A stretch of 64,000 nucleotides of DNA. Source: Gammaproteobacteria bacterium (lineage in GTDB: Bacteria; Pseudomonadota; Gammaproteobacteria; GCA-001735895). The stretch is taken from NCBI GenBank assembly GCA_024225395.1, contig JAAEMR010000044.1, positions 8,132 through 72,131 on the forward strand, read 5' to 3'. Below, one piece after another: positions 5,363-39,902 of the stretch; the first letter of the stretch is position 1, and every line of letters begins with the position of its first letter. Both the position numbers and the translations under genes were made by a program. The notes below the pieces were generated by a model. That model worked only from the letters and a program-made list of their open reading frames with translations, had not been told where the DNA came from and made no database searches.

Positions 5363-7828
5363 TTAATGTTGCTGAATAATGACCTGGTCGCTGCCATTAC
5401 AAGATATCATTACATGACTGCCGCTACCATCGGTAAAATGTGCATTGGTAGGGGAGTCACATCCCGTTAAAGATATGACTGTACTATTTGTGATGCTGGC
5501 ATCGGCATCGATACTCGTAACAGTGTAGTTGTTCTCGTTAAAACCAGTAGTGAGTGCCAATACTCCATCTCCATCGGGATCGGGGATGAGGTCAATATCA
5601 AGTGGACTTCCTCCCACATCAGCTGTGTTATGGATCACAGGCGTTACCTCTGGATTTGCCCAGCTTATGGTAGAAATGGTGTTGTCTCCAAAGTTTGATG
5701 TCACGCACACTCCACGTAGGCAGCGTAGTCGCCATGGATACATCCCGACCGAACCCAGATTTTGATCAGTATTGTCAATGTGCTCTTCTCTTGGATCAAA
5801 CAACCATAATGAGCCGTTAGTTTCTTCACCATTCTCAACAAGTACCAGTGCAGGTCCATCGAAACCACCAACAACGCTGACAACATCACCACTTTGTCGC
5901 CATTCGCCACTGGTTCGTATAAAACCTGCAGGTCGCCTCCAATCCGTTACCTCGCTATCCCAGCCAAGAAAGCTGACTGAATCACTGCCATTGTCTACCA
6001 CCAGATATCCGGTGTCGCGACCATTTATATCGACGGGCCCCGGGACAATGTCGGTAACACGACTGTTAGGGTAAGGGTGAAACTGGGACATTCCCCATTC
6101 GCCAGAATCCGAATTATATGAGGTTTCACTGTAACCGCCGCTGCCGGTATAGAATACCATCCATTCTGCTGTATCTCGATCAGACTCAGGAGCTACCAGG
6201 AATACACCACCCAGATACGGGTATAAACCTGCGGGCATCGACAGGCGTTCCACTTCGGTGCCATCGTGTAAATCCCAAACTCCAATTTGATCAGCACCTG
6301 ATACAAGGGCATAGTCACGGTCTGCAGGAAGATCCAGAACATCCAAAGACTGGTGTCTTATAGGTGATTCATCTGCAAAGGGATCGCCTGCAGACCAGTA
6401 ATTATCACGCACATTAAGTCCGATATAACCTACGTATGTTTCTGGTGCAGTCAGCTGGAATGAGTCTATCCAGCCAATACTCTCAGGGTCCTTGCAGCTT
6501 ACATGGACAGTGAGTAAATCTTTAGCCATGTAGAAACCTTCATCCTTTGGAAATACCCTTAGCTCAAATCCAATAGTCGTATCACCAGCTTTTAAACATT
6601 TATAACTAAGGTTTTGGGTATTAGCGCCTATTACAGGATTTTGGATCTCTATGGCATCATATTTCTTATTGGGAAACAGAGTGATCATTTCCGCTCCAGC
6701 ACTGGTAGCAGGATTGCCTAATTCTGTTTTCGATACAATGCCTGGATTACTGTCCAGGATCCAGATTTCGTATTCATTAGTGTTGTCTAATGCAATTTCA
6801 GTAATGGCAATTTTGAATGACTCCTCTAGTGTCTTAGTTACTTTGCTGGGGGCGAGTAAAAAACTTGTTGCGGGTCCGGATCCATAAGGAGAGATTATTG
6901 AAGTGGCCCCTGAATTGCTATCAGGCCCTATACAGATAATCCATTTGTCTTGTCGCTTAGTTACTATATTGGATAGTTTAAAGCCTTTAACTAACTTGAA
7001 AGTGCCATCTGAATACATGTCTTCATAGCCAACACTGAAGTGTGGTTTAGCCAGGCCTGGTCTTAAGCATTCCAGTTTCACTGTTCCCGATAATACTGAG
7101 GCTTGGCTTGCAACCAATGAGCCCATATCTATGGGCATTTCTTCCAAAATTGCTAATGGATCTGCTAAATCCACAGATCCATAAAATGCTATTCGCTCAG
7201 CACTGATATCGGATTCAGCAGAATGAGTAACCATGGCATTAACATTAAACTTCTGACCAACCTGTGCGACACCAGGGATTCCAGTTATTTTAAATCGATC
7301 ATAAAGACCTAATACTACGGCTATAGTGGAGAAATGACTCAGTTCACCACTTAAGCTGGTGATCCCAGTATTCTGATCTATTGATAATGTTACATTATCC
7401 AATAGCTCAATAATGCTATTGGATGAGGTGAGTATCGCCGCAATCGCACTACCTGCATCGTCATCTTCAAGTATTGACAACTCAATTGGAATACTAATTG
7501 TAATTGGCTTTTCCAGGGTTAAACCAGAAGGCCCCAGTTCATACGCAAAAATTGTATCAATACCTTCAAATTCTTCGGGAAAATCAACAGGATTTAGTTT
7601 AGTGACGCTGATATCAACTGTCTCAGTTAATGCATCTGCCGGTATCTGAAGACTAAGCAGTCCATCCGCGGAAGAAATAGCTCCCCCTTCAGCACCGACT
7701 GTAACGATGACGGGAGTATCCGTGTTTATGTTATCGTTATTGCTTCCACCACCACAGGCAGCTAAAACGATAGAAAAAGATAAAATGATAATTAAACGGA
7801 AGGCCTTAATTAAGTAAAGAACACCCAT
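5363..7828 (-). CDS. Large predicted lipoprotein (821 aa), surface or secreted, function unknown
   Basis: Signal peptide with a lipobox (…SIVLAAC GGGSNND). Ser/Thr/Gly/Asp-rich beta-type composition. Confidence 0.6.
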   Translation of the reverse strand: MGVLYLIKAFRLIIILSFSIVLAACGGGSNNDNINTDTPVIVTVGAEGGAISSADGLLSLQIPADALTETVDISVTKLNPVDFPEEFEGIDTIFAYELGPSGLTLEKPITISIPIELSILEDDDAGSAIAAILTSSNSIIELLDNVTLSIDQNTGITSLSGELSHFSTIAVVLGLYDRFKITGIPGVAQVGQKFNVNAMVTHSAESDISAERIAFYGSVDLADPLAILEEMPIDMGSLVASQASVLSGTVKLECLRPGLAKPHFSVGYEDMYSDGTFKLVKGFKLSNIVTKRQDKWIICIGPDSNSGATSIISPYGSGPATSFLLAPSKVTKTLEESFKIAITEIALDNTNEYEIWILDSNPGIVSKTELGNPATSAGAEMITLFPNKKYDAIEIQNPVIGANTQNLSYKCLKAGDTTIGFELRVFPKDEGFYMAKDLLTVHVSCKDPESIGWIDSFQLTAPETYVGYIGLNVRDNYWSAGDPFADESPIRHQSLDVLDLPADRDYALVSGADQIGVWDLHDGTEVERLSMPAGLYPYLGGVFLVAPESDRDTAEWMVFYTGSGGYSETSYNSDSGEWGMSQFHPYPNSRVTDIVPGPVDINGRDTGYLVVDNGSDSVSFLGWDSEVTDWRRPAGFIRTSGEWRQSGDVVSVVGGFDGPALVLVENGEETNGSLWLFDPREEHIDNTDQNLGSVGMYPWRLRCLRGVCVTSNFGDNTISTISWANPEVTPVIHNTADVGGSPLDIDLIPDPDGDGVLALTTGFNENNYTVTSIDADASITNSTVISLTGCDSPTNAHFTDGSGSHVMISCNGSDQVIIQQH

Positions 7829-7990
7829 GATGTTTAACCTCTATTTATTTAAAGGCTACTCTCACCATGAATCAAAAACAATTCAAGATGGATATAGAAT
7901 TGACCTGTATCAAAGGCTATAAATGGACCATTGCGGGTATCGAGGTTGTCACACAGAATTGACCGGTTCACGCCCTGAGTCATTCACCTT

Positions 7991-8217
7991 GGTCAGATAA
8001 ATGGCCGGTGACTGGAATAGAACTGGCTGATACTCTGGAAAAAAAGAGCAAATATATCTTTTGAAAAATAAACCGGGAAGTGTCAGGTTTTTAAACTTTC
8101 TGGTTTCCCCATACCGGACAAAGTAGACAACAGGATCTTCGGTTTACAGCTAGGTCAGAGAGATTAATAATGCTTTCCATTGGTCTTAAAAATGAACAAA
8201 GGAGTCGTTCCAGTCGG
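7991..8217 (+). repeat. Interspersed non-coding repeat, copy A (about 225-nt family)
   Basis: Shares the GGTCAGA(C/T)AAA…CTGGAAT…GGGAAGTGTCAGGTTT…CCATACCGGAC…TTCGGTTTA…ATGAACAAAGGAGTCGTTCC core with copies at about 13006, 15326, 19951 and 60361. Confidence 0.6.
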
Positions 8218-8231
8218 TGCACTAGAGAACT

Positions 8232-9494
8232 TTATTTTAACTTATGGTGCCAGATATTATTCAGGTTTAGACTCTGTTCTTTTCGAGGAATAACAACAAT
8301 TCCGCTCCTCGTTACGTGATAAAGTTGCTTGTCTTTTTCCTGATCATAACCTATTACGGTGTTTGCAGGAATTTTGACGTGTTTATCGATGATGGCTCGC
8401 CGAATTTTACATCCTCGACCTATCTCTACTTTATCAAATAATATTGAATCGCTGATGTCGCAATAGCTATTAACCTTAATATTTCGCCCTAGCACGCTGT
8501 CGTAAACTTTGCTGCCGCTTAGGATAGTTCCCTCGGAGATAATGGAATCCACTGCCATGCCTCTGCGACCATCGTCATTAAAGGCAAATTTTACCGGAGG
8601 AGAGCTTAGTTCAGCAGTTCTTAGCGGCCACTGATCATTATAAAGATTAAAATTTGGTGAAATACTTTTTAAATCCATGTTTGCTTCGAAGAAATCATCG
8701 ATGTCTCCAACATCTTTCCAGTAGTCTCTTTCCTCCTGAGTAACCGACCCCGGTACTCTGTTCAGGCCGAAATCATAAGCGAAAACTTTCATCCTGTGGC
8801 ATATATCAGGCAGTATCGTTCTCCCGAAATCATGATCAGTATTCATTACCGCATCACTCTTGAGTTCTTCTAGCAGTACCTCAGTATTAAAAATGTAGTT
8901 TCCCATCGATACCAGACATTTACCAGGATCGTTCGGTATAGTAACAGGCACTTTAGGTTTTTCGTAAAACTGCTTTACCTTCCAGTCCTCATCAATCTCG
9001 AGGCAACCGAATTTATACGATTCTTCCTTGTCGATGCACAAAGCTGATACAGTTGCATCGGCATTTTTCTTTTCATGGAAGGTGATCATCTGGCTCACAT
9101 CCATACGGTAAATATGATCCGCTCCGAATATCGCAACATAGTCTGGCATGGCTCTTTCTATGAGGTGGATATTCTGGTAGATAGAGTCAGCGGTCCCTTT
9201 GTACCAACTTTCACCAACTCTCATTTGTGCAGGAACAAGAGTAATAAACTGATTTCTAAGCAGCGAGCCGAATTGCCAGCCATTTTCAAGATGCTCTACC
9301 AGTGACTGAGATTTAAACTGCGTGAGTACGTAAATCGAACAGATGCCGGAATTGACTAGATTGCTAAGGATAAAATCAATTATCCGGTATTTTCCACCAA
9401 AAGGAACTGCCGGTTTCGCCCTGTCCTTAGTCAGTGGATAGAGCCTGGTTCCTTTTCCACCGGCCATGATTAATGCTAATACACTTTTTTTCAT
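8232..9494 (-). CDS. glgC: Glucose-1-phosphate adenylyltransferase
   Basis: 420 aa. N-terminus LALIMAGGKGTRLYPLTKDRAKPAVPFGGKYRIIDFILSN and the overall length match GlgC. Confidence 0.9.
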   Translation of the reverse strand: MKKSVLALIMAGGKGTRLYPLTKDRAKPAVPFGGKYRIIDFILSNLVNSGICSIYVLTQFKSQSLVEHLENGWQFGSLLRNQFITLVPAQMRVGESWYKGTADSIYQNIHLIERAMPDYVAIFGADHIYRMDVSQMITFHEKKNADATVSALCIDKEESYKFGCLEIDEDWKVKQFYEKPKVPVTIPNDPGKCLVSMGNYIFNTEVLLEELKSDAVMNTDHDFGRTILPDICHRMKVFAYDFGLNRVPGSVTQEERDYWKDVGDIDDFFEANMDLKSISPNFNLYNDQWPLRTAELSSPPVKFAFNDDGRRGMAVDSIISEGTILSGSKVYDSVLGRNIKVNSYCDISDSILFDKVEIGRGCKIRRAIIDKHVKIPANTVIGYDQEKDKQLYHVTRSGIVVIPRKEQSLNLNNIWHHKLK

Positions 9495-9905
9495 CCTGCC
9501 TCCCGAAATTCACGTTCTTCAAAAACTTGTCAAAACGGAAATGACATTTAGTAATAATATCAGTCATGCAAAATAGTCTAATTAGGATACTAGCATAATC
9601 GAGTATTACACATACAACAAAGCTGGCATATCCGGTTTTTCTGTATATTGAGAAGCCCCTTTACAAGCTATTGAGGTGAAAACTGATATTACCGAACATT
9701 TGTGGGTTTTATTATTTAAGATATAGCTAGAAAAATTAAATGTTCACAAATATGAAATTTAATTCTCAAGTAGTGAATTATTCTGGTGGATCGATTCTGA
9801 GATACAAGGCTGCTTCTTGTTTGATTGTAGCCATCATAGTGGTGAAAAAGAAAACTAGTAGTTTAACCTGTAAAATTGCACAAAAAGTTCATATGTTTGA
9901 CTCCA

Positions 9906-9960
9906 GAATGGACAAACCGGCCGTATATGCCAGCACCAAAACCGGCTCTTCACGACCGAC
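9906..9960 (+). repeat. 3'-end fragment of the interspersed repeat family
   Basis: GAATGGACAAACCGGCCGTATATGCCAGCACCAAAACCGGCTCTTCACGACC matches the 3' terminus seen at 60478-60536. Confidence 0.4.
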
Positions 9961-10306
9961 CCACCGCGGACCTTCAGAAAAAGCCAACCTCTATGACGTT
10001 GGCTTATTATATAGGGCATAAGTACTTAATTTGTCAGAATTCTGCCTGGCCTGTTTATTATTCAGGATATGAATCTGCCGGATGTTCCTCTGATAAGCTA
10101 TTCTTCTCTTTTAAAACATTCTTCTAACGATTCAATGAGACCGCTTTAATTGATACAATCCCATGAGCAGCTTCAGCAATCGGGGCATCGGACAAATTCA
10201 TCGTGAGAGGCCGGTTTCCTCCGAGTCCCTGAGCAAACCATGGGCTGACAGGGAAAGTAAGGTGCAGTCTTTATAGACGTACTTTGGGTTTAACATCTAA
10301 CAGTGG

Positions 10307-12784
10307 TCAATAGAGATAAACCGCTCCAGCACTTTTTGCCGAATCATTACTCTGGTCACCATTGACCCCAATACTGTCGCTGCTTTCCCAGCGTGCACCG
10401 ACTGCCAGTTTCTCACCATCATCACTTAGGGTGACACTGATTCCAAAATAATCGTCATTTCCGGTATTACTCGCTTTTACGTATGCCTGCTGGCTCCAGG
10501 TAATACCGCTACGAGTAAATACATACGCGGCGCCTGTCTGGTAGCCGGTATTATTCTGGTTACCATTTAGACCTATGGCATCGCTGTCTTCATTAGCTGA
10601 ACCTGTAGCGAGGATATTACCATCGCTACTCAGCGCAATACTGCCACCAAAATAATCTCGTTCATCGGTATTGCTGGCCTTGATGTAAGCCTGTTGCTCC
10701 CAGCCAGCATCGGTATCAATAAACAGATAAACAGACCCTGAATATATAGCATCATTATTGAACTGCTCACCATCTATACCCGTGGCATTGCTGGCTTCTT
10801 TTGAGCCTACGGCAAGCGTTTTCCCATCACCACTGATAGCTAGATTACCGCCAAACATATCACTTGCTTCTGCATTGCTTGCCTTGAAATAGGTTTGCTG
10901 ACTCCAGGCGGAGCCGCTGTAGTTAAACAGGTAGGCTGCACCTGCTCCTGAGGCTGTATTATCTGCCTGATTACCATCAATTCCGGTTGCAATGCTATCC
11001 TCGCTTGCTGCACCCACGATAAGGGTATTGGCGTCATCACTCAGATCGATACTTCCTCCAAACGAGTCCCCTGCATCAGTATTGCTCGCCTTGATATAGG
11101 CCTGCTGGCCCCAGGCCGAGCCATCGTAATTAAACAGGTAGACTGCACCGGCACTTGTGGCTGTATTATCTGTCTGATTACCATTAATACCGGTGCTGGC
11201 ACTATCTTCTTTCGGAGCACCCACGGCCAGGATCGTACCGTCATTACTCAGTGCAATGCTATAACCAAACCATTCATCTGGATCAGTGTTGCTCGCTTTC
11301 ACATAGGCCTGCTGGTACCAGTTACCTGCGCTATATTCAAACACATAGGCTGCACCGGAATTTAGATGAGCGAAATCATCACCATTATTTGGATAGTCAT
11401 CGACACCGGTGCCATTACTGTCTTCATAGGGAGCACCCACGGCCAGAATGTTGCCGTCGTAGCTAAGTGCGACCTTAAGGCCAAACTGATCCTCTGCACC
11501 GGCATTATTTGCCTTGACGTATCCTCTTGGTATCCAGGTGCTTCCGCGCTTGAAGATGTACACTGCTCCCGCTGATTCCTCCACGTTGAAATTGGGTGCT
11601 TGGTCACTGTCTTCACCCGGCGCCCCCACAGCCAGGGTTCTACCGTCACCACTTAATGCAACACTACTAAAACCATCACCAGCTTGGGTATTAATGGCCT
11701 TAAGGTATCCAATCGCTTCGATCATCACTGGGACGATGCTTTCTGGTGCTGAAGATGCAAGTAAAACCCCACCTGCACCATAGGCCTCGACCATGTAGCT
11801 TGCATTGACCCAGTCAGCCAGGTGCACCGAGACCTCATCCCATGAAGAAAAATTCTCTGCACCGAAATCATAGAAATTAGTCAAAAGCTGGGTATAACCC
11901 GACGCACCATCTGGATTGACAAAAAGCTTGTAATAGACCGTGCCCTCATAATCAGACCAGTCAAACCACACTCTATTGACGTATGAGGTATCTTCTGGTT
12001 TGACGACATTAAGTTCAAGAACATCATTAACCGTTACTGTGACAAGTTGCGTGGCGAGATAAGCGCCGTCAGTCGCACCGACCTGAACCTGGTAGACGTT
12101 ATCCTGATCACCATCAAATGGCGATTCGTAATCGGGTATAGTGATGAAGCTTAACCCACCGCTGGCGCCATCAATGGTAAAATCGGCACCATCATAGCTA
12201 TTCAAGATTGTGAATATAACGTTGTCCGATTGGGGATCGGTTGCACTTATTGTGGCCACCGCTACATTATTTTCCTGAACAGAAAAATCGCTTCCTGAGG
12301 TAAACTGGGGCGCTTCGTTACCACCAACAATACCGCACATATACTCAGTAGTGGTGATCTCGCTGATATCGAGCAATCCATCGTTATCAAGATCCAGCCC
12401 GGCATCAATCTGCAGACCGTCAACGATACAATTAGCCCCGGCAGGTTCGTCACTGACTGAAACCAGTGCAGTATTACCATCAGCACCATCAGTACCATCA
12501 GCACCGTTGCACACCTTCTCAGCGCTATCGACTTCACCGTCGTCGAGCACGCCATTGCCGTTTTCATCGATGCCGGCCTCTACAAGGATGCCACCATAAG
12601 GACAGTCGATATCGTCAGCTGCCAATACAGTGGTGCGGGCGGCTGACGATAAATCGCCGCTTTCGGAGACTGGGCTATCATCGTCATTACCAGCGCTTCC
12701 ACTGCAAGCGGAAAGAAATATTAACGAGATAAATAAAACGAACTTAAAGAATTCTTCAGGGGAGTTTGAGTTTGAGCTGTCCAT
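10307..12784 (-). CDS. Surface lipoprotein with a cadherin-like domain and tandem FG-GAP-type (integrin-alpha-like) repeats
   Basis: Signal peptide plus lipobox (LSAC). Cadherin-like segment (VQENNVAVATISATDP…VTVTVNDV). Seven or more roughly 60-aa repeats of the type FG.S..LS.DG.TLAVGAP.EDS…G.NG.Q.DN….GA.Y.F. Paralogous to the C-terminal half of the 39899..45955 product. Confidence 0.7.
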   Translation of the reverse strand: MDSSNSNSPEEFFKFVLFISLIFLSACSGSAGNDDDSPVSESGDLSSAARTTVLAADDIDCPYGGILVEAGIDENGNGVLDDGEVDSAEKVCNGADGTDGADGNTALVSVSDEPAGANCIVDGLQIDAGLDLDNDGLLDISEITTTEYMCGIVGGNEAPQFTSGSDFSVQENNVAVATISATDPQSDNVIFTILNSYDGADFTIDGASGGLSFITIPDYESPFDGDQDNVYQVQVGATDGAYLATQLVTVTVNDVLELNVVKPEDTSYVNRVWFDWSDYEGTVYYKLFVNPDGASGYTQLLTNFYDFGAENFSSWDEVSVHLADWVNASYMVEAYGAGGVLLASSAPESIVPVMIEAIGYLKAINTQAGDGFSSVALSGDGRTLAVGAPGEDSDQAPNFNVEESAGAVYIFKRGSTWIPRGYVKANNAGAEDQFGLKVALSYDGNILAVGAPYEDSNGTGVDDYPNNGDDFAHLNSGAAYVFEYSAGNWYQQAYVKASNTDPDEWFGYSIALSNDGTILAVGAPKEDSASTGINGNQTDNTATSAGAVYLFNYDGSAWGQQAYIKASNTDAGDSFGGSIDLSDDANTLIVGAASEDSIATGIDGNQADNTASGAGAAYLFNYSGSAWSQQTYFKASNAEASDMFGGNLAISGDGKTLAVGSKEASNATGIDGEQFNNDAIYSGSVYLFIDTDAGWEQQAYIKASNTDERDYFGGSIALSSDGNILATGSANEDSDAIGLNGNQNNTGYQTGAAYVFTRSGITWSQQAYVKASNTGNDDYFGISVTLSDDGEKLAVGARWESSDSIGVNGDQSNDSAKSAGAVYLY

Positions 12785-13005
12785 CTTTCCACACCTATTG
12801 ATTCCAATTAACTCAATCTTAATTTGAGCAGATATTAAAAAGGTTAATACTGATTGAGGTCATGTTTGGGGGAGATTCAATCTTTAAAGAATTTAAAATT
12901 AGATGAAAGGTACTTACGGCTCTAAACTTATGTAGAAATATACTGTAAAAGATAATAATTATTTTACCAGTATCTTCCCATGGCACGTTGTACTCATGTC
13001 CGATC

Positions 13006-13225
13006 GGTCAGACAAATGACCGGTAACCTGGAATAGAATTGGATAATAACCTGGGGAAATCTGAGTAAATAAATCTTTTGTAAAGTTAAGCAGGAAGTGT
13101 CAGGTTTCAAACGTCCAGATTTCCCTATACCTGTCATAGGAAGCAATAGGGTCTTCGGTTTAAAAGCTCAATCAGCGAATCATTCCACATTTTCTGTTAG
13201 TCTCAACCATGGACTTAGCTGACAT
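13006..13225 (+). repeat. Interspersed non-coding repeat, copy B
   Basis: Same conserved core and orientation as copy A. Lies between a minus-strand adhesin gene start and a plus-strand secreted-protein gene. Confidence 0.6.
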
Positions 13226-13380
13226 AGAAAGTTTTCAATAAAATAGCTTAACCAAGTAACTAATCTACCACATTCTGGATTGTGATTCTCTGGTTGATAT
13301 TGGCGAACAGGCCTTTTTACCTATTGATAAGCTCCTTCTTCGGTTAGAATGTTTTTTTTTAAAACTAATGGAATGAACCA

Positions 13381-14061
13381 ATGAATAGCAAACTTTCTGT
13401 AGCTTTAGTATTACTATTATTATCACCTGTTACCTGGGCTATCGATCACACTGGGACTATTCTGGAAACCATGAATTCTGGTGGATATACCTATGCCAAA
13501 ATCAAGGCAAAGCAGAAAGAATTCTGGATAGCCGGTTCTAGTGCCGTGGTCAAGGTTGGCGATACTATTAGCTTTAATGAGCAAATGAAGATGCATAACT
13601 TTACCAGTAAAACTCTCAATCGTACCTTTAAGGATATAATGTTTGTAGGTGGAATTACTCAGGGAAATAGCGCCGAGAATGTCTCCTCTGTCTCTGCAAC
13701 CTCGGTACATGGCAAAATTTCTGCTCCAGTTGCTAAAGTAGATAAAGCCACTAAAGCCGAAGGTGGATATACCGTTGCTGAACTGTTTAGTAAAAAGTCT
13801 GAATTAAGCGGCAAAAAAGTAAAAGTTCGTGGCACTGTTGTTAAAGTTTCTAACGCTATTATGAAGACAAACTGGATTCATATTCAGGATGGTACGGGTG
13901 CGATGGGTAGCGATGATATTATCTTTCGTGCACCGACGGCCACCGCTAATGTCGGAGACGTCGTTATTGCCTCTGGTACTTTAGTCACAGATCAGGATTT
14001 TGGATATGGTTACAAATATGCAGTGATTGTAGAAGGTGCTTCTTTTGAAATCAGTAAATAA
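13381..14061 (+). CDS. Secreted protein with two OB-fold-like (BOF/YgiW-like) halves; function unknown
   Basis: Signal peptide (…SPVTWA). Two internally similar halves with the pattern GGYT…K.K…V…G.VVKV… Assignment is tentative. Confidence 0.4.
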   Translation: MNSKLSVALVLLLLSPVTWAIDHTGTILETMNSGGYTYAKIKAKQKEFWIAGSSAVVKVGDTISFNEQMKMHNFTSKTLNRTFKDIMFVGGITQGNSAENVSSVSATSVHGKISAPVAKVDKATKAEGGYTVAELFSKKSELSGKKVKVRGTVVKVSNAIMKTNWIHIQDGTGAMGSDDIIFRAPTATANVGDVVIASGTLVTDQDFGYGYKYAVIVEGASFEISK

Positions 14062-14266
14062 CGGTATGTCTTATACAACCTGATGTTATAACTATCTTGA
14101 AAAGATGTTTACGAGGAACGCGCGAGTTGATTTGATCAAAAGCGAGTCAGAGCAATACCGCACAGGATAATTATCAGTGCAATAATGCTGCTTGCGTTTA
14201 CCGTTTCCGAGATAATGAGAGCATCCGAAAAAAGCAACTACCAGGATCAGGTAATTTATCCTGCTT

Positions 14267-15046
14267 GTGGACAAAAGTTACTGGACAGCTGATCTGAAAG
14301 GCCCTCTTGATGTTGGTGTATTTTTTCCAGGCTATCGGGAATATACGTTGATAGAGCAGATATCATTAGAAAGCCCATCACCATCAGCCTGTGGTGATTA
14401 CGCTGTTTTTATTGAAGACAGTTGCCAGAATTTTTTAATCCCTGAACTGGTGCAACAGGCTGATATCGATCGTATCAATGGAGAGGCATTGAATTCAATG
14501 ACAATTTGTCCTGCTACCAAACAGGAGACGGGGGGACGGTTTGTTTATATTCCTGAAGACAGAAATAATGGTAATTATATCAGCTGTGAATATCAGGGTA
14601 ATGAGATTGGCTCCCTGATGGCTTACCAGGTGCCTTACCTGAATTACAATTTTACAGATGGAGTAAAAATTTCCTATGATGTAAATGGGAATTTTTTTGC
14701 AGTTACTGAAAGAAATTCAACCGATACCACAAGCACATCGCTGTTTTATGAGCCTGATGGATTTATAAAGCAGGTCTATTACAGCTCAGAGGTAGAGAAT
14801 ATTTATCTGACCATGTTTTTTACACCGGATGATTTATGGGGCAGCACCTGGAGTTATAGCTTTAACCAGGGTGTAACTGGTGTAGACCATCATGGTCAGT
14901 GGGTTAATTTTAATGACAAGGAGGTTTTATCAGTATTGTTATTTGGAATATCCAATACTATGGAAAAAGACATGAGATTTGAAGCGGGCGTAATGACCCA
15001 GTGCACACTACGCAATGGCAATGAAATACTGGGTAGTTGTATGTAA
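14267..15046 (+). CDS. Hypothetical protein (GTG start in the ORF track), Cys-containing, possibly secreted
   Basis: ORF of 259 aa with coding-like composition. No recognisable family. Confidence 0.35.
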   Translation: MDKSYWTADLKGPLDVGVFFPGYREYTLIEQISLESPSPSACGDYAVFIEDSCQNFLIPELVQQADIDRINGEALNSMTICPATKQETGGRFVYIPEDRNNGNYISCEYQGNEIGSLMAYQVPYLNYNFTDGVKISYDVNGNFFAVTERNSTDTTSTSLFYEPDGFIKQVYYSSEVENIYLTMFFTPDDLWGSTWSYSFNQGVTGVDHHGQWVNFNDKEVLSVLLFGISNTMEKDMRFEAGVMTQCTLRNGNEILGSCM

Positions 15047-15091
15047 GGATTTACTCCTGACCAAAATAGCGCAATGTAATAAAGCATTGCT

Positions 15092-15118
15092 ACCTTTAAT
15101 TCGTCTGAATTAAAGGTT
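15092..15118 (+). terminator. Perfect 11-bp hairpin downstream of the 14267..15046 ORF
   Basis: ACCTTTAATTC-gtctg-GAATTAAAGGT inverted repeat. It has no strong U-tract, so it may be only a weak or bidirectional terminator. Confidence 0.25.
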
Positions 15119-15325
15119 AAAACCTTACCTTTAGACGAGTGGCTTTTCATCTAGCAGTTGAATTATTGTATATGATATGGGATATCGAACAGGTTCACAT
15201 ACAAAATAGAATATCATTTTGGAAGTAACTGGGATCATAGAATTTAATATATAGAAAGTTCAAACTCCATAAAAAAAGGAAAATTTTCTACGGCTGGTTT
15301 CTCCACTTTGTAAGTATTCACTATT

Positions 15326-15546
15326 GGTCAGACAAACGACAGGTGCCTGGAATCGAAGTAGATTGTATTCTGGAAAAATAAGAGCTAAAACCTTTTGAAG
15401 AATTAACCTGGAAGTGTCAGGTTTAAGCTTCCTGAATTCTCCATACCGGACGTAGGAGGCCATAGCACATTCGGTTTAAAGTTAAACCACAGAAATAGTC
15501 AACTATAACCATCAGGCTTAATCATGGACTAATGAGTCATTCAGGT
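15326..15546 (+). repeat. Interspersed non-coding repeat, copy C
   Basis: GGTCAGACAAACGACAGGTGCCTGGAAT…CCTGGAAGTGTCAGGTTTAAGCTTCCTGAATTCTCCATACCGGACGTAGGAGGC…TTCGGTTTAAAG…ATGGACTAATGAGTC. Lies about 290 nt upstream of the PKD-protein gene. Confidence 0.6.
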
Positions 15547-15836
15547 ATTGGTTTAAACACTAAATTTCTGATATTCCTGTTCGACATTGACACCTAAACT
15601 GATGGGCAAGGTGCTGGGTATCGTTTACCGCTCGAATGCATCCCACCTCATCAAAAAAGCAGGGCTGACTCAAAAAATGCCAAAATCCAGTGCGACAACG
15701 AACTTGATACCCGCAATACCCGTTTGAACAGCTGTCCAATACCATTGGATTTAAGGAAATGTATCGTTTATTCTTCTTTTACTTTACGTACATGCCCTCT
15801 TGATTTGTTCCATGATATTGTGAGAATGCTAAAACC

Positions 15837-18800
15837 ATGAAAACTCCACAGCAGCTTATTATCGCAGGTTTTTTTTACCTGATTACTTCTGGTTTAGCTA
15901 ACTCAGCCTCTTTGGTTACTGTTCTGGCTTCGAATAAAAGCTCGCTATCAACAGCAATATTAAGTGCCTGTAGTGCGAACGGATCCACTTATATCTGCCA
16001 CAGTGAAAATGCTTTTATCCATAAAGTAACTGAACTCGGTTTTAACTTGTTTAGAGAAGGCTTTGAAACTACTGCCTGGGATGTTGTGCGCTCTCCAAAT
16101 TCTGCTCCAGACGTTGTCAGTAAAGGGGTCACCTGGACTACAGGCGCAAATAGTATAACTACCGGGATTCCTAAAGGTATTGGCAATTCATGGGCAGGTT
16201 TTAAACCTTCCCATGGGCTAGCGACACTGACTTCATCCAGCTGTGAAACTAAAACTCCTCCAGCAGGATGCTTTCAACATGATGGTTTGAGCGGAAGTGG
16301 ATCAGGACTATTCGCTGTAGGTGGCTACATACAGACTACTGGTGCTAATCCAGCAAATATTTCCATAATTGTGAATGGTGTTTCTCACCGTTTCGAGAAA
16401 AAAAATCTGGATAGACCTCAATTTTACGGTGTTATTAAAACGACAGGTTTTACCACTTTCAAGTTTCTCGAACAGGATGGAAAAGCAGGACATGAAATAC
16501 CAGTATTTATTGATAATTTAGTGATTGGAACATCAAAGACTGTAGCTGCAAATAATATACCTGAACTAACCCCTTTAAAGTCCAGGGTAGCTAAAGTCAA
16601 TAGAACTCTGCGCATTGCGGTAACAGCGACTGATCTGGATATAGATGATAGTTTTAAATTTTCCAGTAGCTCCCTACCAGCAGGTGCAACTTTTGAAGAT
16701 AATCTCGACGGTACAGCAACCTTTACCTGGAGACCCGATTATTCCCAGGTAGGTAGTTATCCGATTAGTTTTACAGTAACCGATAATGGATTTCCTGCTG
16801 GTAGTGATACCGTAGTTTCGACGATCAAGGTAAATCATCCGCCAGTGATAAATAGTGCACCGGTTATAAGCGCCACAGAGGACACTGCCTATAGTTACAG
16901 CCTGCTGGCTTCAGATGTAGATGGAGACGTTTTAACTTATACCGATATCAGTAATCCAGCCTTACCTGGCTGGATTAATTTTGATAAGAAAACTCATGTT
17001 TTAAGCGGTATTCCTACTGTAACTGATGTCGGAGTCTTGAATGTAGCTCTGCAAGCTGCAGATGGTAATTTTAAAGTGAACCAGCGCTTTAATATTACCG
17101 TAGAAAAATTAAACAGGCCTCCAGTAGCTGACATAGGCGGGCCTTATACGTTGCTGGAAGGTGCCAGTGTATTAGTGGATGCAGGTAAATCGACTGATGT
17201 AGACGGAGACCAACTCAGTTATGGCTGGGATTTAAATAATGATGGAAACTTTACCGATGCCACAGGGGTCAGCTTAACTCACAGTTGGCCTGATAATGGC
17301 AGTTATTCAATTGCTGTGAAAGTCACCGATGATAAGGGCAATATTGACACTGCCACTACTTCAGTCACAGTAAATAATGTAGTCCCGAAAGTTAATGCGG
17401 GTACAGACCAGACAGTCAGGGAAACTGAAACAGTCAAATTTAGTGGTTCTTTTAGTGACCCAGGCTCTGTCGATACCCATACTATCCTGTGGGATTTCGG
17501 CGATGGCAGTGCAGAAGTGAGTGAGACACTAACCCCGGACCACATCTATATGAAACCGGGCCAGTATACAGTCACTCTTCGTGTAACCGATAAAGATCAG
17601 GGAATGACCAGTCATACATCAACGGTATCTGTCATTAACATAGCACCTGTCGCTGTCGCAGGGCTGGGACAGCTGCAAAGAGTTAAGGTTAATGATCAGG
17701 TAAATCTCAATGGTAGCAGTTCATTTGATATTTCTGGTGCTCCAGTTACCTATGCCTGGAGTATCAAAACGAAACCCTCAGGCAGTAACAGCCTTTTATC
17801 GAGTGCCGCTACAGTTGACTCCAGCTTTGTGGCGGATACTTCAGGCACCTATGTAATACAACTGATTGTGAACGACGGAATAGATGATAGTTATGCCGAT
17901 ACGGTGACTATTAGCGTGAACTCAGCCCCAGTAGCAAATGCGGGAGAGGATCAAACAACTCCACTTGCTAATAGTGTGATACTGGATGGTAGTGGCTCGA
18001 TAGATTCTGATGGGGATGAGCTAACGTATAATTGGTCAATGGTCAGCAAACCGACAGGTAGCGCAACCGGTTTATCCAGTGCATCTGTGGTAAATCCCAG
18101 CCTGAAGATTGACTTACCCGGTAGCTATCAGGTGCAACTAACGGTCAATGATGGTTATGTAGATAGTCAGGTCGATACAGTGAGTATCAGAACCATCAAC
18201 AATGCACCTGTGGCAAATGCAGGTATAGAACAAGTTGCTCATATCTCAGATACCATCACCCTGAATGGCAGTAACTCAAGTGATACCGATGGCAATGATT
18301 TATTGTTTAGCTGGGTATTAATCAGCAAACCGGAAGGTAGCGCCGTCAAATTATCCCGCGCTTCCACTGCTACTCCGAATTTTGTAGCCGATCGGGTCGG
18401 TAGTTATGTCGCCCAGTTAGTGGTCAATGACAATCAGCTCGACAGTGTGCCTGATACAGTGACAGTCAACATTAACAACAGGGCTCCTTTAGCCGTCATC
18501 AGACAAGTCGAGCAGATTGATGAAGGCGCCAGTGTATTACTGGATGCGAGAGAATCTTCTGATGCGGATGGAGATCCGCTTGTTTATAGCTGGGACCTGA
18601 ATGATGACGGAGTGTTTGATGATGCCGTGGGTACGACGGCCACTTTTAAAAATTTAGAGAATGGAATATACCCCGTTTCTGTCGAAGTATCTGATGGTTC
18701 ACTAGCCAGTCATAGCACCGTAAGCGTAACCGTAAATGACCTGGGACCTACCGCCGCGTTGAGTGGCAATAGTATTTTGAATGAAGGAACCACTGGTACT

Positions 18801-19544
18801 TTTAATGCTGGTGAATCCAGTTCCAGCCCGGATAAAATTGTCAGCTACGAATGGGACCTGAACAACAATAGCAGCTTCACCGATGCCACAGGAGTTATCA
18901 CCACCCATAGCTGGCCGGATAATGGCAGTTATACCATCTCAGTAAAAATCACCGATGACGATGGTAGTACTGATATTGCCACCACCACAATTGAGGTGAA
19001 TAATGTGGCTCCGGAGGTTAATACAGGTCCAGGCCAGACAGTTAACGAAGCCGAAACGGTTGAATTTAGCGGTTCTTTTATCGATCCTGGGACACTAGAC
19101 ACTCATACAATTGTATGGAACTTTGGTGATGACAGCGAAGAAGTGGGAGGAACGCTAACTCCAACCCATGTGTATATGAAACCAGGTCTATATATAGCTA
19201 CTCTTAGTGTGACTGATAAAGATCAAGGAACTGCCAGCAACACATCCATTATGTCGGTTAGCAACCTGCCACCGGTTGCTGTCGCGGGAATAAACCAGAG
19301 CGTTTCACTAAATACCCTGGTTAACCTTGATGGCAGTAGTTCATTCGATGTCTCTGACGCTCCACTCTCCTATGCCTGGAGTATCATAACTAAACCCATA
19401 GGAAGCACCACCAGCCTGAACAATGCTACGACCGTTACACCTAGCTTTGTTGTAGATATCGCAGGGATCTATGTAGTAAAACTTTTTGTGAATGATGGTA
19501 TCGGCAATAGTATTGCAGATACCGTGACAATTGCTACCCATTAG
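15837..19544 (+). CDS. Large secreted protein with multiple PKD domains and PKD/Ig-like (K319-like) tandem repeats
   Basis: Signal peptide. Several PKD signatures (…VNAGTDQTV…F.GSFSDPG..DTHTI.WDFGDGS…). Six or more roughly 95-aa repeats (APVANAG.DQ…LDGS.S.D.DGD.L.Y.W…KP.GS…). Confidence 0.75.
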   Translation: MKTPQQLIIAGFFYLITSGLANSASLVTVLASNKSSLSTAILSACSANGSTYICHSENAFIHKVTELGFNLFREGFETTAWDVVRSPNSAPDVVSKGVTWTTGANSITTGIPKGIGNSWAGFKPSHGLATLTSSSCETKTPPAGCFQHDGLSGSGSGLFAVGGYIQTTGANPANISIIVNGVSHRFEKKNLDRPQFYGVIKTTGFTTFKFLEQDGKAGHEIPVFIDNLVIGTSKTVAANNIPELTPLKSRVAKVNRTLRIAVTATDLDIDDSFKFSSSSLPAGATFEDNLDGTATFTWRPDYSQVGSYPISFTVTDNGFPAGSDTVVSTIKVNHPPVINSAPVISATEDTAYSYSLLASDVDGDVLTYTDISNPALPGWINFDKKTHVLSGIPTVTDVGVLNVALQAADGNFKVNQRFNITVEKLNRPPVADIGGPYTLLEGASVLVDAGKSTDVDGDQLSYGWDLNNDGNFTDATGVSLTHSWPDNGSYSIAVKVTDDKGNIDTATTSVTVNNVVPKVNAGTDQTVRETETVKFSGSFSDPGSVDTHTILWDFGDGSAEVSETLTPDHIYMKPGQYTVTLRVTDKDQGMTSHTSTVSVINIAPVAVAGLGQLQRVKVNDQVNLNGSSSFDISGAPVTYAWSIKTKPSGSNSLLSSAATVDSSFVADTSGTYVIQLIVNDGIDDSYADTVTISVNSAPVANAGEDQTTPLANSVILDGSGSIDSDGDELTYNWSMVSKPTGSATGLSSASVVNPSLKIDLPGSYQVQLTVNDGYVDSQVDTVSIRTINNAPVANAGIEQVAHISDTITLNGSNSSDTDGNDLLFSWVLISKPEGSAVKLSRASTATPNFVADRVGSYVAQLVVNDNQLDSVPDTVTVNINNRAPLAVIRQVEQIDEGASVLLDARESSDADGDPLVYSWDLNDDGVFDDAVGTTATFKNLENGIYPVSVEVSDGSLASHSTVSVTVNDLGPTAALSGNSILNEGTTGTFNAGESSSSPDKIVSYEWDLNNNSSFTDATGVITTHSWPDNGSYTISVKITDDDGSTDIATTTIEVNNVAPEVNTGPGQTVNEAETVEFSGSFIDPGTLDTHTIVWNFGDDSEEVGGTLTPTHVYMKPGLYIATLSVTDKDQGTASNTSIMSVSNLPPVAVAGINQSVSLNTLVNLDGSSSFDVSDAPLSYAWSIITKPIGSTTSLNNATTVTPSFVVDIAGIYVVKLFVNDGIGNSIADTVTIATH

Positions 19545-19705
19545 ACGGGAGTGTTAGCGTGGTCTTAATGAAAATACCGGGTTGTACTTCAGAGTTGAAT
19601 CCGTACATTATTAATAAGACAATTAACTACACCTTAAGTCGACAGCAACAGTTAACCGGAGTCAACCGAAGGGCAACAGAGTAGCACCGAATTAAGCTCT
19701 GGAGA

Positions 19706-19942
19706 ATGGACATGCCAAAAGATGCCAAGATTGAGATTATTATTGATTCCTCGCTGCTGAAACATTTCACAGAGAATCTGAATAGGCTGAATTCCGGCAA
19801 AACGCCGGAAGATGTTATTGCTGGGGTCATTACGACCATCCTTGACGGCTCGTCCTTTCCGCTGAAGGTAAAGCGGACAGGAGAGCAGACCATCCACATA
19901 GGCTATCACTTCCGTTCCTTTTCCCAACCGTTTTTTGAGTAA
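19706..19942 (+). CDS. Small hypothetical protein (78 aa)
   Basis: ATG start with coding-like composition. No confident family assignment. Confidence 0.3.
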   Translation: MDMPKDAKIEIIIDSSLLKHFTENLNRLNSGKTPEDVIAGVITTILDGSSFPLKVKRTGEQTIHIGYHFRSFSQPFFE

Positions 19943-19950
19943 TCACAATT

Positions 19951-20174
19951 GGTCAGACAAACGACCGGTGCCTGGAATCAAAGTGGATGATAATCTGGAA
20001 AAATCCGAGCTTACAACTATTTGAAAAATTTAACTGGAAGTGCCAGGTTTCAACTTCCTGAATTCTCCAAACTGGACGTAGGTGGCGGTAGGCTTTCGGT
20101 TAGCAATTAAGCCAAAGAGATTATTAATAATTTCACTTAGTCTTAAAGATGGACGAAGCGGTCGTTCATGAAGG
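19951..20174 (+). repeat. Interspersed non-coding repeat, copy D
   Basis: GGTCAGACAAACGACCGGTGCCTGGAAT…ACTGGAAGTGCCAGGTTTCAACTTCCTGAATTCTCCAAACTGGACGTAGGTGGC…TTTCGGTTAG…ATGGACGAAGCGGTCGTTCATG. Confidence 0.6.
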
Positions 20175-20378
20175 TATTAGGAGGGGTTTTTCTCTACCCA
20201 AACCAGGTTCAATAAAGCTTTTATGGGATTTTCTGTTCCCTCGGTAAATGCTTAGTTAGTCAGCCCTGAAAAATACGCCAAGCTATTGATTATTATTAAT
20301 AAATCACTAAAAACAGATACCCCTTTCGAACAGGAATAGTAAAATAGTAGCTCAGTTTCTGGTCGAAATGGTGAAATA

Positions 20379-20597
20379 ATGCTGATCAATAGTAGTAACG
20401 ATGCGCATCAACCCAGTTTATCTGGAAATGACTTATTGCAGCAGCTTGATCCAGCTGACCCATTGCTCCAATTATCCAGCGTTATTCCCTGGTCTGACTT
20501 TGATCAGGCCTTTACAAAGCATTACACCCAAGGGATTGGAGCGCCCAGCAAGCCAATCAGGCTGATGGTCGGTTTGTTAATACTCAAGCAGCTTTGA
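20379..20597 (+). CDS. IS5-family transposase, N-terminal part (orfA; DUF772-like)
   Basis: …PWSDFDQAFTKHYTQGIGAPSKPIRLMVGLLILKQL is the typical N-terminus of IS5/InsH-like transposases. Confidence 0.7.
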   Translation: MLINSSNDAHQPSLSGNDLLQQLDPADPLLQLSSVIPWSDFDQAFTKHYTQGIGAPSKPIRLMVGLLILKQL

Positions 20598-20622
20598 GAA
20601 CCTCAGTGATGAATCGGTTGTC

Positions 20623-21384
20623 TTGCAGTGGAAGCGTAACCCCTGCTATCAGGCTTTTTGTGGGCTCACGGAGTACCAACCCAGACCGCCCTGTCACAGT
20701 ACCGAACTGGTGCATTTTAGAAAACGCATTGGTAAAGTCGGTATCGAACAGATATTCCAGATGAGTGTACGCCTGCATGGCCGTCTGGCGCAGGAAGATA
20801 CGGTTAATATTGATACCACGGTTCAGGAAAAGAACATCACCTATCCGACGGATGCCAGGCTTGCCATCAAGACCATTAACCACAAGTGTATTGCATCGGT
20901 AAGGGCAAAGATCATAAGCAGTATGAGTATGGCAATAAAGTATCCATCTCCTGTAGTGCAAAAAAGTAACCTGATTGTCGGTGTCGTCAGCCATGAGCTG
21001 AACCTGCATGATATTCATACTCTGCCAGAGGTGTTAAAACACATCGAAGAGTCGAGAGGAAAAGCGGTTAAGACTGCCGTCTGTGATCGAGGCTATCGGG
21101 GTAAAAAGGAAGTCAATGGAACACGTATCATGCTACCGGCAAAAGGGCTGAAAAGAGACAATCGATATCAGCGAGATAAAAAAAGAAAGCAGTGTAAAAG
21201 GCGAGCAGCCATCGAGCCGATCATTGGTCATTTAAAATCAGACTTTCGGCTCTCCAGAAACTTTTTAAAAGGTGTTACAGGTGATGAAATTAATTTGCTG
21301 ATGGCAGCCACTGCCTGGAATCTAAAAAAATGGCTAATCGCCTTTTTTGGGCTGTCATTATTACCCGGAAAAATCTATTTTTAA
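20623..21384 (+). CDS. IS5-family DDE transposase, catalytic part (orfB)
   Basis: Continues orfA in a different frame. DDE_Tnp_1-type features are present (…DTTVQEKNITYPTDARL…AVCDRGYRGK…). The split suggests either a programmed frameshift as in the IS427 group or an inactivating frameshift. Confidence 0.75.
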   Translation: MQWKRNPCYQAFCGLTEYQPRPPCHSTELVHFRKRIGKVGIEQIFQMSVRLHGRLAQEDTVNIDTTVQEKNITYPTDARLAIKTINHKCIASVRAKIISSMSMAIKYPSPVVQKSNLIVGVVSHELNLHDIHTLPEVLKHIEESRGKAVKTAVCDRGYRGKKEVNGTRIMLPAKGLKRDNRYQRDKKRKQCKRRAAIEPIIGHLKSDFRLSRNFLKGVTGDEINLLMAATAWNLKKWLIAFFGLSLLPGKIYF

Positions 21385-21995
21385 TAAAAATTTAGCCTGT
21401 CAGAAAAAGATGGAAAGAATATTCGGGCCTGGCTTACCAGCCTGGAATTTGGAGGAATATCAATCAGCCCCAATTCTTTTTTCAGGGCTGACTAAATACT
21501 AAAATCAAAGAATCTGTGCTGTTAAACAGGGATGTGCTTATGCTGCGAGGCCAGGGGAAGAGAGCCATCGCGAGGGTCGGATCAGCGAGAGTAAAGAGTT
21601 ATTCCCCCATTTTTTCAAGCAGCAGTTGGTTATTGCAAAAATTGAGGAGCTAGAGATGGCAGTCTCCATGGTCCGTAATTTTAGTCACAACTATACAGAT
21701 CTGTCTATCTGGGCGTAGCGGCATGCATCGCACCTTGCTCCCTTTTTAAATTATTACTATTTTGCCAAATGGATTGTATTTTGCAAATTGGGAATCAGGT
21801 TTATTGATTGTGTTGGTCAATTAGGAGTATATCTGAAAACTAGGATATCTACTCGGCAACTGCTCCATACGCTACTCACCAACGTTATGGCGGACTATGC
21901 TCGGACAGACTGTCTTCATAAAATACAGTTATATTAATAGTGGAATAATTCTTGCTTATTTCCATATTGCATATATTAAAAAAGGAAGTCATTTA

Positions 21996-39500: not shown

Positions 39501-39902
39501 TGTCCATCGCTTTTTTCTGTTGAAAAATTGCAACTAAATAAATTAGTAGACCTTCCATTTATGGTTTACAGGCAGGCTCGTACAATGGATGGTAACGTCG
39601 GAAAGTGGGTTCAGGTAAGCCCGTTGATTAATACGATATTCTGGGAATTTTATCTGGAAAAAGACAATGTAACCAGAGTCTGGACTTTTAATGACCCTTA
39701 TTTCAAGTTTTTCCGAACATCCTATAATCCGGCCTCTCCCTGGGTATTATCTTTTGTTGACCGATACCCGCATATTGCCGGATATGAATACCGCTATCAA
39801 ATTGTCAGCTTTACAGAAGAACATGCAATTGATGCTATTAAAATATCTGCCGGATTAGACGAAACCTGGGTAAAAGCCGCTGAGCTGGGAGCAATGCAAT
39901 GA
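36570..39902 (+). CDS. Secreted large protein (1110 aa), possibly with Fn3-like domains; function unknown
   Basis: Signal peptide (…LLFSRQLMA). Lies 16 nt downstream of the giant gene. Its stop overlaps the next start (ATGA). Confidence 0.6.
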   Translation: MKTQIVYNMKKAVLLLTLILIQLLFSRQLMANEGQFYFTAKSAPLGASSQMGKSAQAVYLRWDLVEGLLPDDITRFELRRDDIPTPLLKKNIDDIMLPAEIHQMYAGEAEQQRLLQTVNSLQKLSLAQNQPFNASGFATELHDRLTNSDDIAWTFLASRQNFNIARARYRGYLDTEASGLVTYKLYVFNAQGNSALVGKVDVDTTSLTDKQVLPVSNFHQVEKTNCSITNAMEDHYTVILDWAAPGNTVTDHTASALQNGGYQIYRSTSNIGADITEVPVVNLAAKAATLGHDQRGNIKFTDLEPVNEFLIIAEGNDTQGQRQPAYFESPSQLKAAGLKPGDKRFYYIAPIDFAGHIGKTTGTIVQVPDRLKPATPWNIEFKQATGSIDRASLEWDSSTLTNYTAYYDQSRVICNAESAAVDGKIEYAASLEACNSVIHSRIDIETYLVYRFQTAQQSAGFSDADGDGFTDVDEKIAGSNACDDGSIPTDSTTKYLIKQDNYSAIDLANGRKKIRFNDTFLTEDENVGNTFWYRIASKTADGNISPLSAPIRGVFWDRVLPQKPTFTAFRNGNCCKLTTTGGDNWAFTDEVEQLGSLSLLFSSDSNSQTSPFNTIHFSDSESTLCKDKDSPIQAFWGKDIAGRELIYPGAEPGSLQQAYCQVAIPESMDLCKTGSWKLEKTSCEQPVRTGDIVDGPVQITVNAEEEGDCVTLWSKIAGQYTRVGSSCGTDQISNLVYEAEPGECLFAHSQDSSGNQSPLTEVVCTTTASSSPPSPPQVISFNAGTDSSDFSWRLPLEPTAITLVEISSDVSENQQTDSDFQLLSIPNAGFIPGNVFAETTGIHELIGARDQWCIRMKALAPVAQDAAEPLSSEWSNRLCSTRRTRTDQSKDYMPWPLVENVSVEQGFVVKASKDFIDSSLGMAYEKMPIIIPFASPALIALNNDGGVLDCNIHDRSINFDESDSTDSGLLLFGRNVTCPSLFSVEKLQLNKLVDLPFMVYRQARTMDGNVGKWVQVSPLINTIFWEFYLEKDNVTRVWTFNDPYFKFFRTSYNPASPWVLSFVDRYPHIAGYEYRYQIVSFTEEHAIDAIKISAGLDETWVKAAELGAMQ

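Follow-up and report, generated by a model that had tools for sequence, protein, structure and literature searches.

The locus described here is a block of about 16 kb (positions 5363-21498) within a 64,000-nt stretch of Gammaproteobacteria bacterium contig JAAEMR010000044.1; the whole of that stretch, over which open reading frames (ORFs) were called, is referred to below as the window. The block contains three genes for large exported proteins of 821, 825 and 1235 amino acids (aa), with the glycogen gene glgC located centrally among them, two small ORFs, four copies of a dispersed repeat of ~235 nt, and one insertion sequence (IS). The features of the block, together with the 2018-aa protein of the giant operon used as a comparator and the repeat copies located elsewhere in the window, were as follows:

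5363..7828, minus strand: 821-aa lipoprotein with an LAAC lipobox, a ZU5-like N-terminal domain, an Ig-like middle and a C-terminal propeller
7975..8214, plus strand: repeat copy 1 (nhmmer E 4.5e-70), between the start of the 821-aa gene and the stop of glgC
8232..9494, minus strand: glgC, glucose-1-phosphate adenylyltransferase (TIGR02091, 461.2 bits against a cut-off of 424.9)
9907..9957, unstranded: solo repeat-tail fragment past the 3' end of the 825-aa gene, matching the 3' tail that the long form of the repeat carries
10307..12784, minus strand: 825-aa lipoprotein with an LSAC lipobox, two DUF7151 modules, a cadherin-like domain and seven FG-GAP_2 stretches
12997..13232, plus strand: repeat copy 2 (nhmmer E 1.9e-66), between the divergently oriented 825-aa and 226-aa genes
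13381..14061, plus strand: secreted protein of 226 aa (signal peptide, two OB-like repeats)
14267..15046, plus strand: 259-aa ORF with no family match
15311..15548, plus strand: repeat copy 3 (nhmmer E 1.3e-71), 289 nt upstream of the 1235-aa gene
15837..19544, plus strand: 1235-aa secreted protein with a signal peptide lacking a lipobox, an N-terminal domain, then cadherin-like, He_PIG and Big_9 domains and about nine PKD domains
19936..20172, plus strand: repeat copy 4 (nhmmer E 2.1e-71)
20253..21498, plus strand: full-length IS5-family element of 1246 bp with 21-nt terminal inverted repeats (NF033578, 302 bits against 275)
39899..45955, plus strand: giant-operon protein of 2018 aa (11 FG-GAP_2 stretches, three cadherin-like domains)
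51289..51405, plus strand: repeat copy 6, partial (nhmmer)
60292..60499, plus strand: repeat copy 5 (nhmmer)

The gene boundaries given in an initial annotation of this DNA were confirmed, as were its 825-aa lipoprotein with seven FG-GAP repeats, its glgC and its 1235-aa PKD/Ig protein. We consider it likely that the region is ordinary native chromosome of an uncultured marine gammaproteobacterium that encodes three unrelated large exported proteins, and that this is the best explanation of the whole. The evidence comes from the relationships of the large proteins, from sister strains in which one of their genes is decaying, and from the composition and gene order of the block.

The 825-aa protein starts with a signal peptide and a lipobox (...IFLSAC(27)SGS) that matches the pattern [LVI][ASTVI][GAS]C. 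Pfam identified seven consecutive FG-GAP_2 stretches of ~69 aa each (E 6.6e-46), and the pattern FG...S.DG..L.VGA was readable in all seven blades. Two DUF7151 modules, missed by the initial annotation, were also recognized, and a Cadherin match was weak (25.7 bits, under the 28.8 cut-off). The seven FG-GAP repeats are predicted to form one integrin-type propeller, and the 11 FG-GAP_2 stretches of the 2018-aa protein can be read as two putative propellers in tandem. Seven-bladed integrin-type propellers, sometimes in tandem, are found in bacteria (Chouhan et al., 2011; PMC3192720). No sequence relative of the 825-aa protein was found in the PDB, and exact look-ups of the 825-aa, 2018-aa and P0121 proteins returned no record.

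Paralogy was examined by an all-versus-all BLASTP comparison of the 31 large ORFs in the window, in which the 825-aa and 2018-aa proteins were the sole relevant pair. The propeller of the former aligned with the C-terminal half of the latter at 43% amino acid identity over 488 aa (E 3e-84), and identities ranged from 43 to 47% across alignments. The proposal that the block shares paralogous modules with the giant operon thus held for this pair and did not extend to the 821-aa and 1235-aa proteins, neither of which had a BLASTP match or a paralogue in the window. No PKD domain was found in the three giant-operon proteins, of which the 1110-aa protein matched no family and the 2194-aa protein matched only Calx-beta, below threshold (21.7 against 27 bits). 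The two FG-GAP proteins had further been described as nearly identical in pattern; this was borne out for the repeat architecture and not for the sequence, given the 43% amino acid identity and a DNA identity of about 55%.

At the nucleotide level the two genes have diverged much further. When the window was compared with itself by blastn (word size 11, E 1e-5), no similarity was detected between 10307-12784 and 39899-45955; the only similarities found were repeats internal to the genes, which were 66-69% identical, with no exact run longer than 17-21 nt. The 825-aa and 2018-aa genes had an exact stretch of no more than 15 nt in common, compared with 11-14 nt in codon-shuffled controls. When the propellers were aligned by codons, nucleotide identity was 52-55% overall and 38-41% at third positions; third codon positions of this pair are near saturation. 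Because the DNA has diverged to saturation, exchange between the two genes is not feasible, and the claim that these modules are substrates for recombination or cassette exchange fails on the low nucleotide identity and on a longest match hardly different from the null. RecA-dependent exchange generally needs an exact match of roughly 20-30 nt.

A database search returned more than 7000 relatives of the 825-aa protein, several of which are named 'integrin' by NCBI. The nearest, 92% identical, is an orthologue on metagenome contig L165. Many propellers from unrelated taxa, among them Sandaracinaceae, Myxococcota and Vibrio, were about 50% identical to that of the 825-aa protein (45-56%, or 48-56% against 43-47% for the paralogue); they are about as close to it as the paralogue in the same genome and often closer. 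The 825-aa and the 2018-aa gene are each a complete ORF with a start codon, and the former also has a lipoprotein signal of its own. The likeness of the two proteins reflects membership of an ancient and widespread FG-GAP_2 fold family and not a recent duplication.

The 821-aa protein has a signal peptide and a lipobox (...IVLAAC(25)GGG) and had no significant Pfam or NCBIfam family. A phmmer search against 1.8 billion representatives found 1242 relatives, only one of them above 40% identity; they matched piecewise, with separate matches to aa 10-215 (N-terminal module), to the middle of the protein and to aa 500-820 (C-terminal module). The 47%-identical relative (P0122) lies in an unrelated neighborhood. 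An AlphaFold2 model built with 78 sequences had a mean pLDDT of 84, and Foldseek matched its C-terminal seven-bladed propeller to YncE and LGI1-EPTP (TMt 0.63-0.66). The ZU5-like region covers aa 40-182. Pfam ZU5 scored 17.9 bits, under the 21-bit cut-off; a profile of the 821-aa family matched the ZU5 domain of ankyrin-1 (3f59, E 3e-4), and Foldseek also matched the model to the ankyrin complex chain 8cs9_X. Within this region an HFS motif (aa 165-167) is situated between the strands E156-165 and E168-182 of the model and is conserved in about 87% of the homologues (the histidine and the phenylalanine in 68 each and the serine in 67 of 78). ZU5 domains of the PIDD type cut themselves at an H-F-S motif (PMC3210808), and some bacterial surface proteins have been predicted to combine an N-terminal ZU5 autopeptidase with a propeller (Zhang et al., 2012; PMC3482391). 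By analogy, the 821-aa protein would be lipid-anchored and would cleave itself after F166 at the HFS motif, and the family, with its ZU5-like domain and conserved HFS, is a candidate for self-cleavage.

In the 1235-aa protein, Pfam stretches were assigned to PKD_4 (nine), K319L-like_PKD (eight), Big_9 (five), He_PIG (two) and cadherin-like domains. A block of three domains is duplicated within the gene (17215-17912 and 18841-19532, 69% nucleotide identity). Membership of the myxosortase-dependent M36 peptidases was rejected, the NCBIfam match reaching 327 bits against a cut-off of 1500 and covering the PKD region only. The 821-aa, 825-aa and 1235-aa proteins are probably adhesin-like or ligand-binding, and we infer that they are exposed on the cell surface and may act as adhesins.

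Sister strains were represented by four contigs (L001-L004) from four independently assembled JGI metagenome samples (3300017613, 3300021146, 3300021186 and 3300021179), retrieved by exact look-up of the glgC protein. They were 99.3-99.8% identical to window positions 1-21516 and colinear with it except in the 825-aa gene, where two segments were missing from all four alike:

11657..13246, unstranded: 1590-bp segment missing from sister contigs, with its junction at a 5-bp microhomology (TTAAG)
11019..11432, unstranded: 414-bp segment missing from sister contigs, in frame and corresponding to exactly two FG-GAP blades

With the 1590-bp segment the sister contigs have lost repeat copy 2 as well as the promoter region and the first 376 codons of the 825-aa gene, and the junction was identical in 4/4 samples. 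The 414-bp junction falls inside a 9-bp match, CGTGGGTGC, common to blades 2 and 4; with one blade deletion located at such a match, intragenic repeats do promote deletion. The 224 bp kept between the two deletions carry nine substitutions, including a TGA stop. Over this remnant the window is identical to L165, so that the substitutions are private to the sister strain; conversion from the allele of the 92% relative was rejected as the source of the nine-substitution patch since window and L165 do not differ there, and no better donor was found within the window. The gene is intact in the window and in L165. Because of the two deletions and the TGA stop, the 825-aa gene is a decaying pseudogene in the sister population. 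The locus is therefore not perfectly conserved among strains, its 825-aa gene having been inactivated in the sisters.

The other large genes did not follow. The 821-aa gene was unchanged in length, with seven synonymous and two non-synonymous differences from the sister strain. The 1235-aa gene was unchanged in length in L001-L003, and two synonymous and four non-synonymous changes made up six single-nucleotide polymorphisms (SNPs) common to all four contigs; the L004 copy was broken by assembly gaps and an insertion. Four further sister-strain contigs (L172-L175) covered the 2018-aa gene, which had the same length and 16-17 scattered SNPs (~0.3%, the background level), and no conversion patch was seen in it. 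Sister contigs showed no cassette-like mosaic; their variation was loss of function. The initial annotation had suggested comparing strains for the presence and copy number of repeat units, and among the large genes such variation was found in one only: the 825-aa gene has lost two blades, the other large genes keep their length and the locus is retained.

Variation was also seen in the small ORFs. The sister-strain form of the 226-aa gene encodes 229 aa owing to 9 bp inserted in frame (13743), and the 259-aa ORF carries a nonsense allele at 14768 (K to stop) in three of the four sister contigs. The fourth contig, L002, has 12 substitutions clustered in 46 nt (14311-14356) of the 259-aa ORF. 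The comparison with the sister strains also revealed an 11-bp intergenic deletion (13279-13289).

The IS remnants reported by the initial annotation are in fact the one full-length IS5-family element with its 21-nt inverted repeats. In the window a frameshift splits the transposase into ORFs 20379-20597 and 20623-21384; the frame is also broken in L001 and L003 and is intact, at 334 aa, in L002. The polymorphic frameshift lies around 20591-20593.

The product of glgC contains NTP_transferase and LbH domains. That the gene stands alone in the block was correctly noted before, and it proved solitary in relatives of 75-89% amino acid identity as well. Informative loci were obtained by protein search followed by exact look-ups, and synteny across species was judged from short metagenome contigs, some of them possibly chimeric. 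The glgC relatives were 89% (L169), 87% (L166-L168), 81% (L170) and 75% (L005) identical in amino acid sequence, each with its own neighborhood, and no flanking gene was common to the window and any of these four groups. Scans of genome and metagenome contigs anchored on glgC gave, among the matches listed, distant glgC genes of at most 57% identity and one of 75%, without the identical JGI contigs, and tblastn of the window proteins against them found no flank in common. In L171 (98% amino acid and 91% nucleotide identity in glgC), homology ran from window position 9559 down to 7981, covering glgC and the adjoining repeat, and then ended; position 7981 is the outer edge of repeat copy 1. Around the 825-aa orthologue of L165, homology ended ~170 bp upstream and ~10 bp downstream. 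The different glgC neighborhood in every relative means that gene order is fluid across the lineage.

Identity to these relatives was uneven along the genes themselves. Between the 825-aa gene and L165 (window 10298-12953), it varied from 64 to 100% per 100-nt window, and one stretch of ~550 nt was identical throughout, with zero synonymous differences in 185 codons, between flanks of 83-90% and 64-68%. Between glgC and L171 (window 7981-9559), ~800 nt were 100% identical and the next ~500 nt 89-96%. Such mosaic identity stems from homologous recombination among lineages or, alternatively, from chimeric assembly of the metagenome contigs. The mosaic of the 825-aa gene is not specific to surface proteins, as glgC shows the same.

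These data bear on the possibility, raised by the initial annotation, that the flanks of glgC are recent insertions, so that block 5363-21498 would be an island, or several insertions, acquired around a resident glgC. In favor of this are the glgC neighbors, which differ in every relative, the end of L171 homology at the repeat beside glgC, the non-homologous flanks of the L165 orthologue, the complete IS5 element at the right edge, and the 821-aa protein with its single relative above 40%. The composition of the block argues against it. The GC content at third codon positions (GC3) was 0.34-0.45 in the island genes and 0.33-0.54 in the remainder of the window genes, and the codon-usage distances were 0.064-0.139 and 0.073-0.155, respectively; the negative GC skew over 4-13 kb follows the minus-strand genes. 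A recent foreign origin is thus not visible in GC3 or codon usage, which fall within the range of the other genes. No tRNA was found in the window, no integrase domain in its proteins and no flanking direct repeat at the island by self-blastn, and the sister strains carry the whole block. Since the glgC context differs in every relative, the pattern argues for a general fluidity of gene order or for movement of glgC itself; the lack of synteny is lineage-wide and hence not specific to the glgC spot, which weakens the case for a single insertion at this site. We regard a recently acquired island as unlikely.

The elements of ~225 nt mentioned in the initial annotation are real: nhmmer delimited six copies, four of them full-length and inside the region and two elsewhere in the window. 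Copies are also present in two other metagenome assemblies (L170:4257-4475, E 1e-49, and L171:1357-1565). They are 72-77% identical to each other and strictly intergenic. A long form of the repeat has a 3' tail of ~50 nt, ATGGACAAACCGGTCGTACCTGCCAGCATTGAAACCGGCTCTTCACGAC, found at 60477-60527 and at L170:4470-4510; its solo fragment at 9907..9957 lies downstream of the 825-aa gene, and L165 has a 26-nt exact match to the tail (2881-2906) in the equivalent place, downstream of its 92% orthologue. Window and sister strains differ by a 4-bp deletion (20148-20151) where repeat copy 4 ends. Repeat copy 5 adjoins ORF 59798-60352, which matched only the C terminus of an IS1380-family transposase (38.5 against 180 bits) and is a true IS fragment.

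Several identities were considered for the repeat. No consistent terminal inverted repeats were found in five copies, and a miniature inverted-repeat transposable element (MITE) or attC-like element was rejected, there being no palindrome, no inverted repeats and no associated integrase or transposase. A coding function was rejected because the copies differ by 1-2-nt indels, and a phage-borne origin because viral contigs gave no match. The repeat had no Rfam match at the gathering threshold or at E<=1 (nor were Rfam families found elsewhere in the window), its fold z-scores were -0.86 and -0.19, and the RNAalifold covariation term was unfavorable on both strands, in a comparison of 6-7 sequences with low power; a structured RNA was set aside for now on these grounds. 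A promoter and terminator scan of the region showed no enrichment over shuffles.

A function of the co-oriented repeats as the core of the locus, whether as module boundaries or as a regulatory or small-RNA family, would account for several of these observations. All six copies in the window are on the plus strand, and four are grouped within 12 kb, each adjoining a large gene; the family recurs in L170 and L171, with one synteny breakpoint at the edge of an element; the 1590-bp deletion ends 11-14 nt past repeat copy 2 (nhmmer envelope and alignment ends 13235 and 13232, respectively); and G-U wobble pairs in a GGAAGTG..CTTCC hairpin are tolerated only on the plus strand. Against this stand the missing terminal inverted repeats and Rfam match, the z-scores of about -0.9 and -0.2 and the unfavorable covariation, together with an inconsistent orientation to the neighboring genes, the absence of a recombinase gene nearby, and a single breakpoint for eight distinct copies. 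We consider this reading improbable. There is a slim chance that the repeat is a novel recombination or junction site that shuffles glgC and exported-protein modules, or a regulatory or small-RNA locus in several copies through which neighboring exported-protein genes are controlled together, in which case the island would be an array of such modules; any role of the repeat in rearrangement would be putative. The repeat, lineage-specific and located at a synteny breakpoint, merits attention as the only feature possibly hiding something new.

Cassette exchange among the FG-GAP and PKD modules of the region and the giant operon, as a source of surface variation, is very improbable: the shared seven-blade architecture, the excision of exactly two blades at the 9-bp match and the mosaic L165 orthologue speak for it, but the paralogues share no DNA similarity, with saturated third positions and a 15-nt longest match under the RecA requirement, the intragenic repeats are only 66-69% identical (no exact run above 17-21 nt), the 2018-aa, 1235-aa and 821-aa genes are unchanged in length with scattered SNPs only, the blade deletion occurred in a gene that also lacks its promoter and N terminus and carries a stop, which marks decay rather than variation of a working protein, and glgC is mosaic alike.

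We therefore return to a native chromosomal region with three unrelated exported proteins as the likely reading. The three large genes differ in structure and follow separate evolutionary paths; around them lie the solitary glgC, the two small ORFs, four repeats and one IS5 element, and their sole link to the giant operon is the FG-GAP_2 propeller of the 825-aa and 2018-aa proteins. Three kinds of variation are at work here. The first is irreversible decay, seen in the short-homology deletions of the 825-aa gene, the nonsense allele of the 259-aa ORF and the frameshifted transposase. The second is probable allelic homologous recombination between related lineages, as suggested by the mosaics of the 825-aa gene and glgC. 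The third is a frequent reshuffling of gene order, with at least one breakpoint at the edge of the 235-nt repeat.

Some observations weigh against this reading. The synteny comparison across species relies on short metagenome contigs, some of them possibly chimeric. The repeat copies are clustered and all co-oriented, and the locus may have a hidden organization. Variation among strains strikes a surface-protein gene and includes the deletion of repeat units, in the spirit of the initial annotation. On balance, the observations of that annotation were largely correct and its interpretation mostly was not. The case calls for caution, as a repeat architecture common to large surface proteins need not mean a system of antigenic variation or recombination. 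It also offers a clean natural example of gene decay by short-homology deletions, one of which excised exactly two propeller blades. What novelty is left rests on the 235-nt repeat.

Elsewhere in the window, a tandem duplication of ~110 nt (78%) was found at 49691-49922, inside a ZrgA-family gene (49506-50288). The product is 260 aa long in the window and 229-239 aa in the sister strain, and the sister alignments overlap or break at the duplication, which suggests repeat-length variation in this zinc-uptake protein.

Antigenic variation by gene conversion at Neisseria pilE/pilS, Borrelia vlsE and Mycoplasma genitalium MgPa needs long near-identical tracts and an expression site combined with promoterless silent cassettes. 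The present locus resembles these systems in having several surface-type genes with repeat architecture. It differs in that the genes are full genes, with ~55% nucleotide identity, exact matches of at most 15 nt and no mosaics in the sister strains; neither near-identical tracts, nor silent cassettes, nor mosaic variants in close strains were found here.

Dispersed intergenic repeats of bacteria include ERIC/IRU, REP/BIME and Correia/NEMIS. The 235-nt repeat shares with these, and with MITE-like elements, its multicopy and intergenic nature; it is longer than most, non-palindromic, and has a separate conserved 3' tail on its long form. The 1235-aa protein resembles the large secreted PKD/Ig-repeat proteins of marine bacteria, with repeats of 90-95 aa after a signal peptide, and has neither a catalytic domain nor a recognized C-terminal sorting tag.

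The 821-aa protein combines an N-terminal domain with a beta-propeller, as do the bacterial ZU5-superfamily autopeptidases (PMC3482391), and conserves the H-F-S motif of PIDD-type ZU5 domains; animal members of the superfamily are PIDD, NLRP1 and CARD8 (PMC3210808). Unlike the ZU5 proteins of polymorphic-toxin systems, it has no RHS repeats and no toxin domain, and its Pfam ZU5 match is sub-threshold. The 825-aa protein has seven consecutive blades, as do bacterial integrin-type FG-GAP_2 proteins (PMC3192720; PMC8023676), and the tandem propellers described for some bacteria (PMC3192720) correspond to our reading of the 2018-aa protein. In contrast to the integrin-type systems, the 825-aa protein carries, fused to its predicted propeller, a cadherin-like domain, a pair of DUF7151 modules and a lipoprotein signal.

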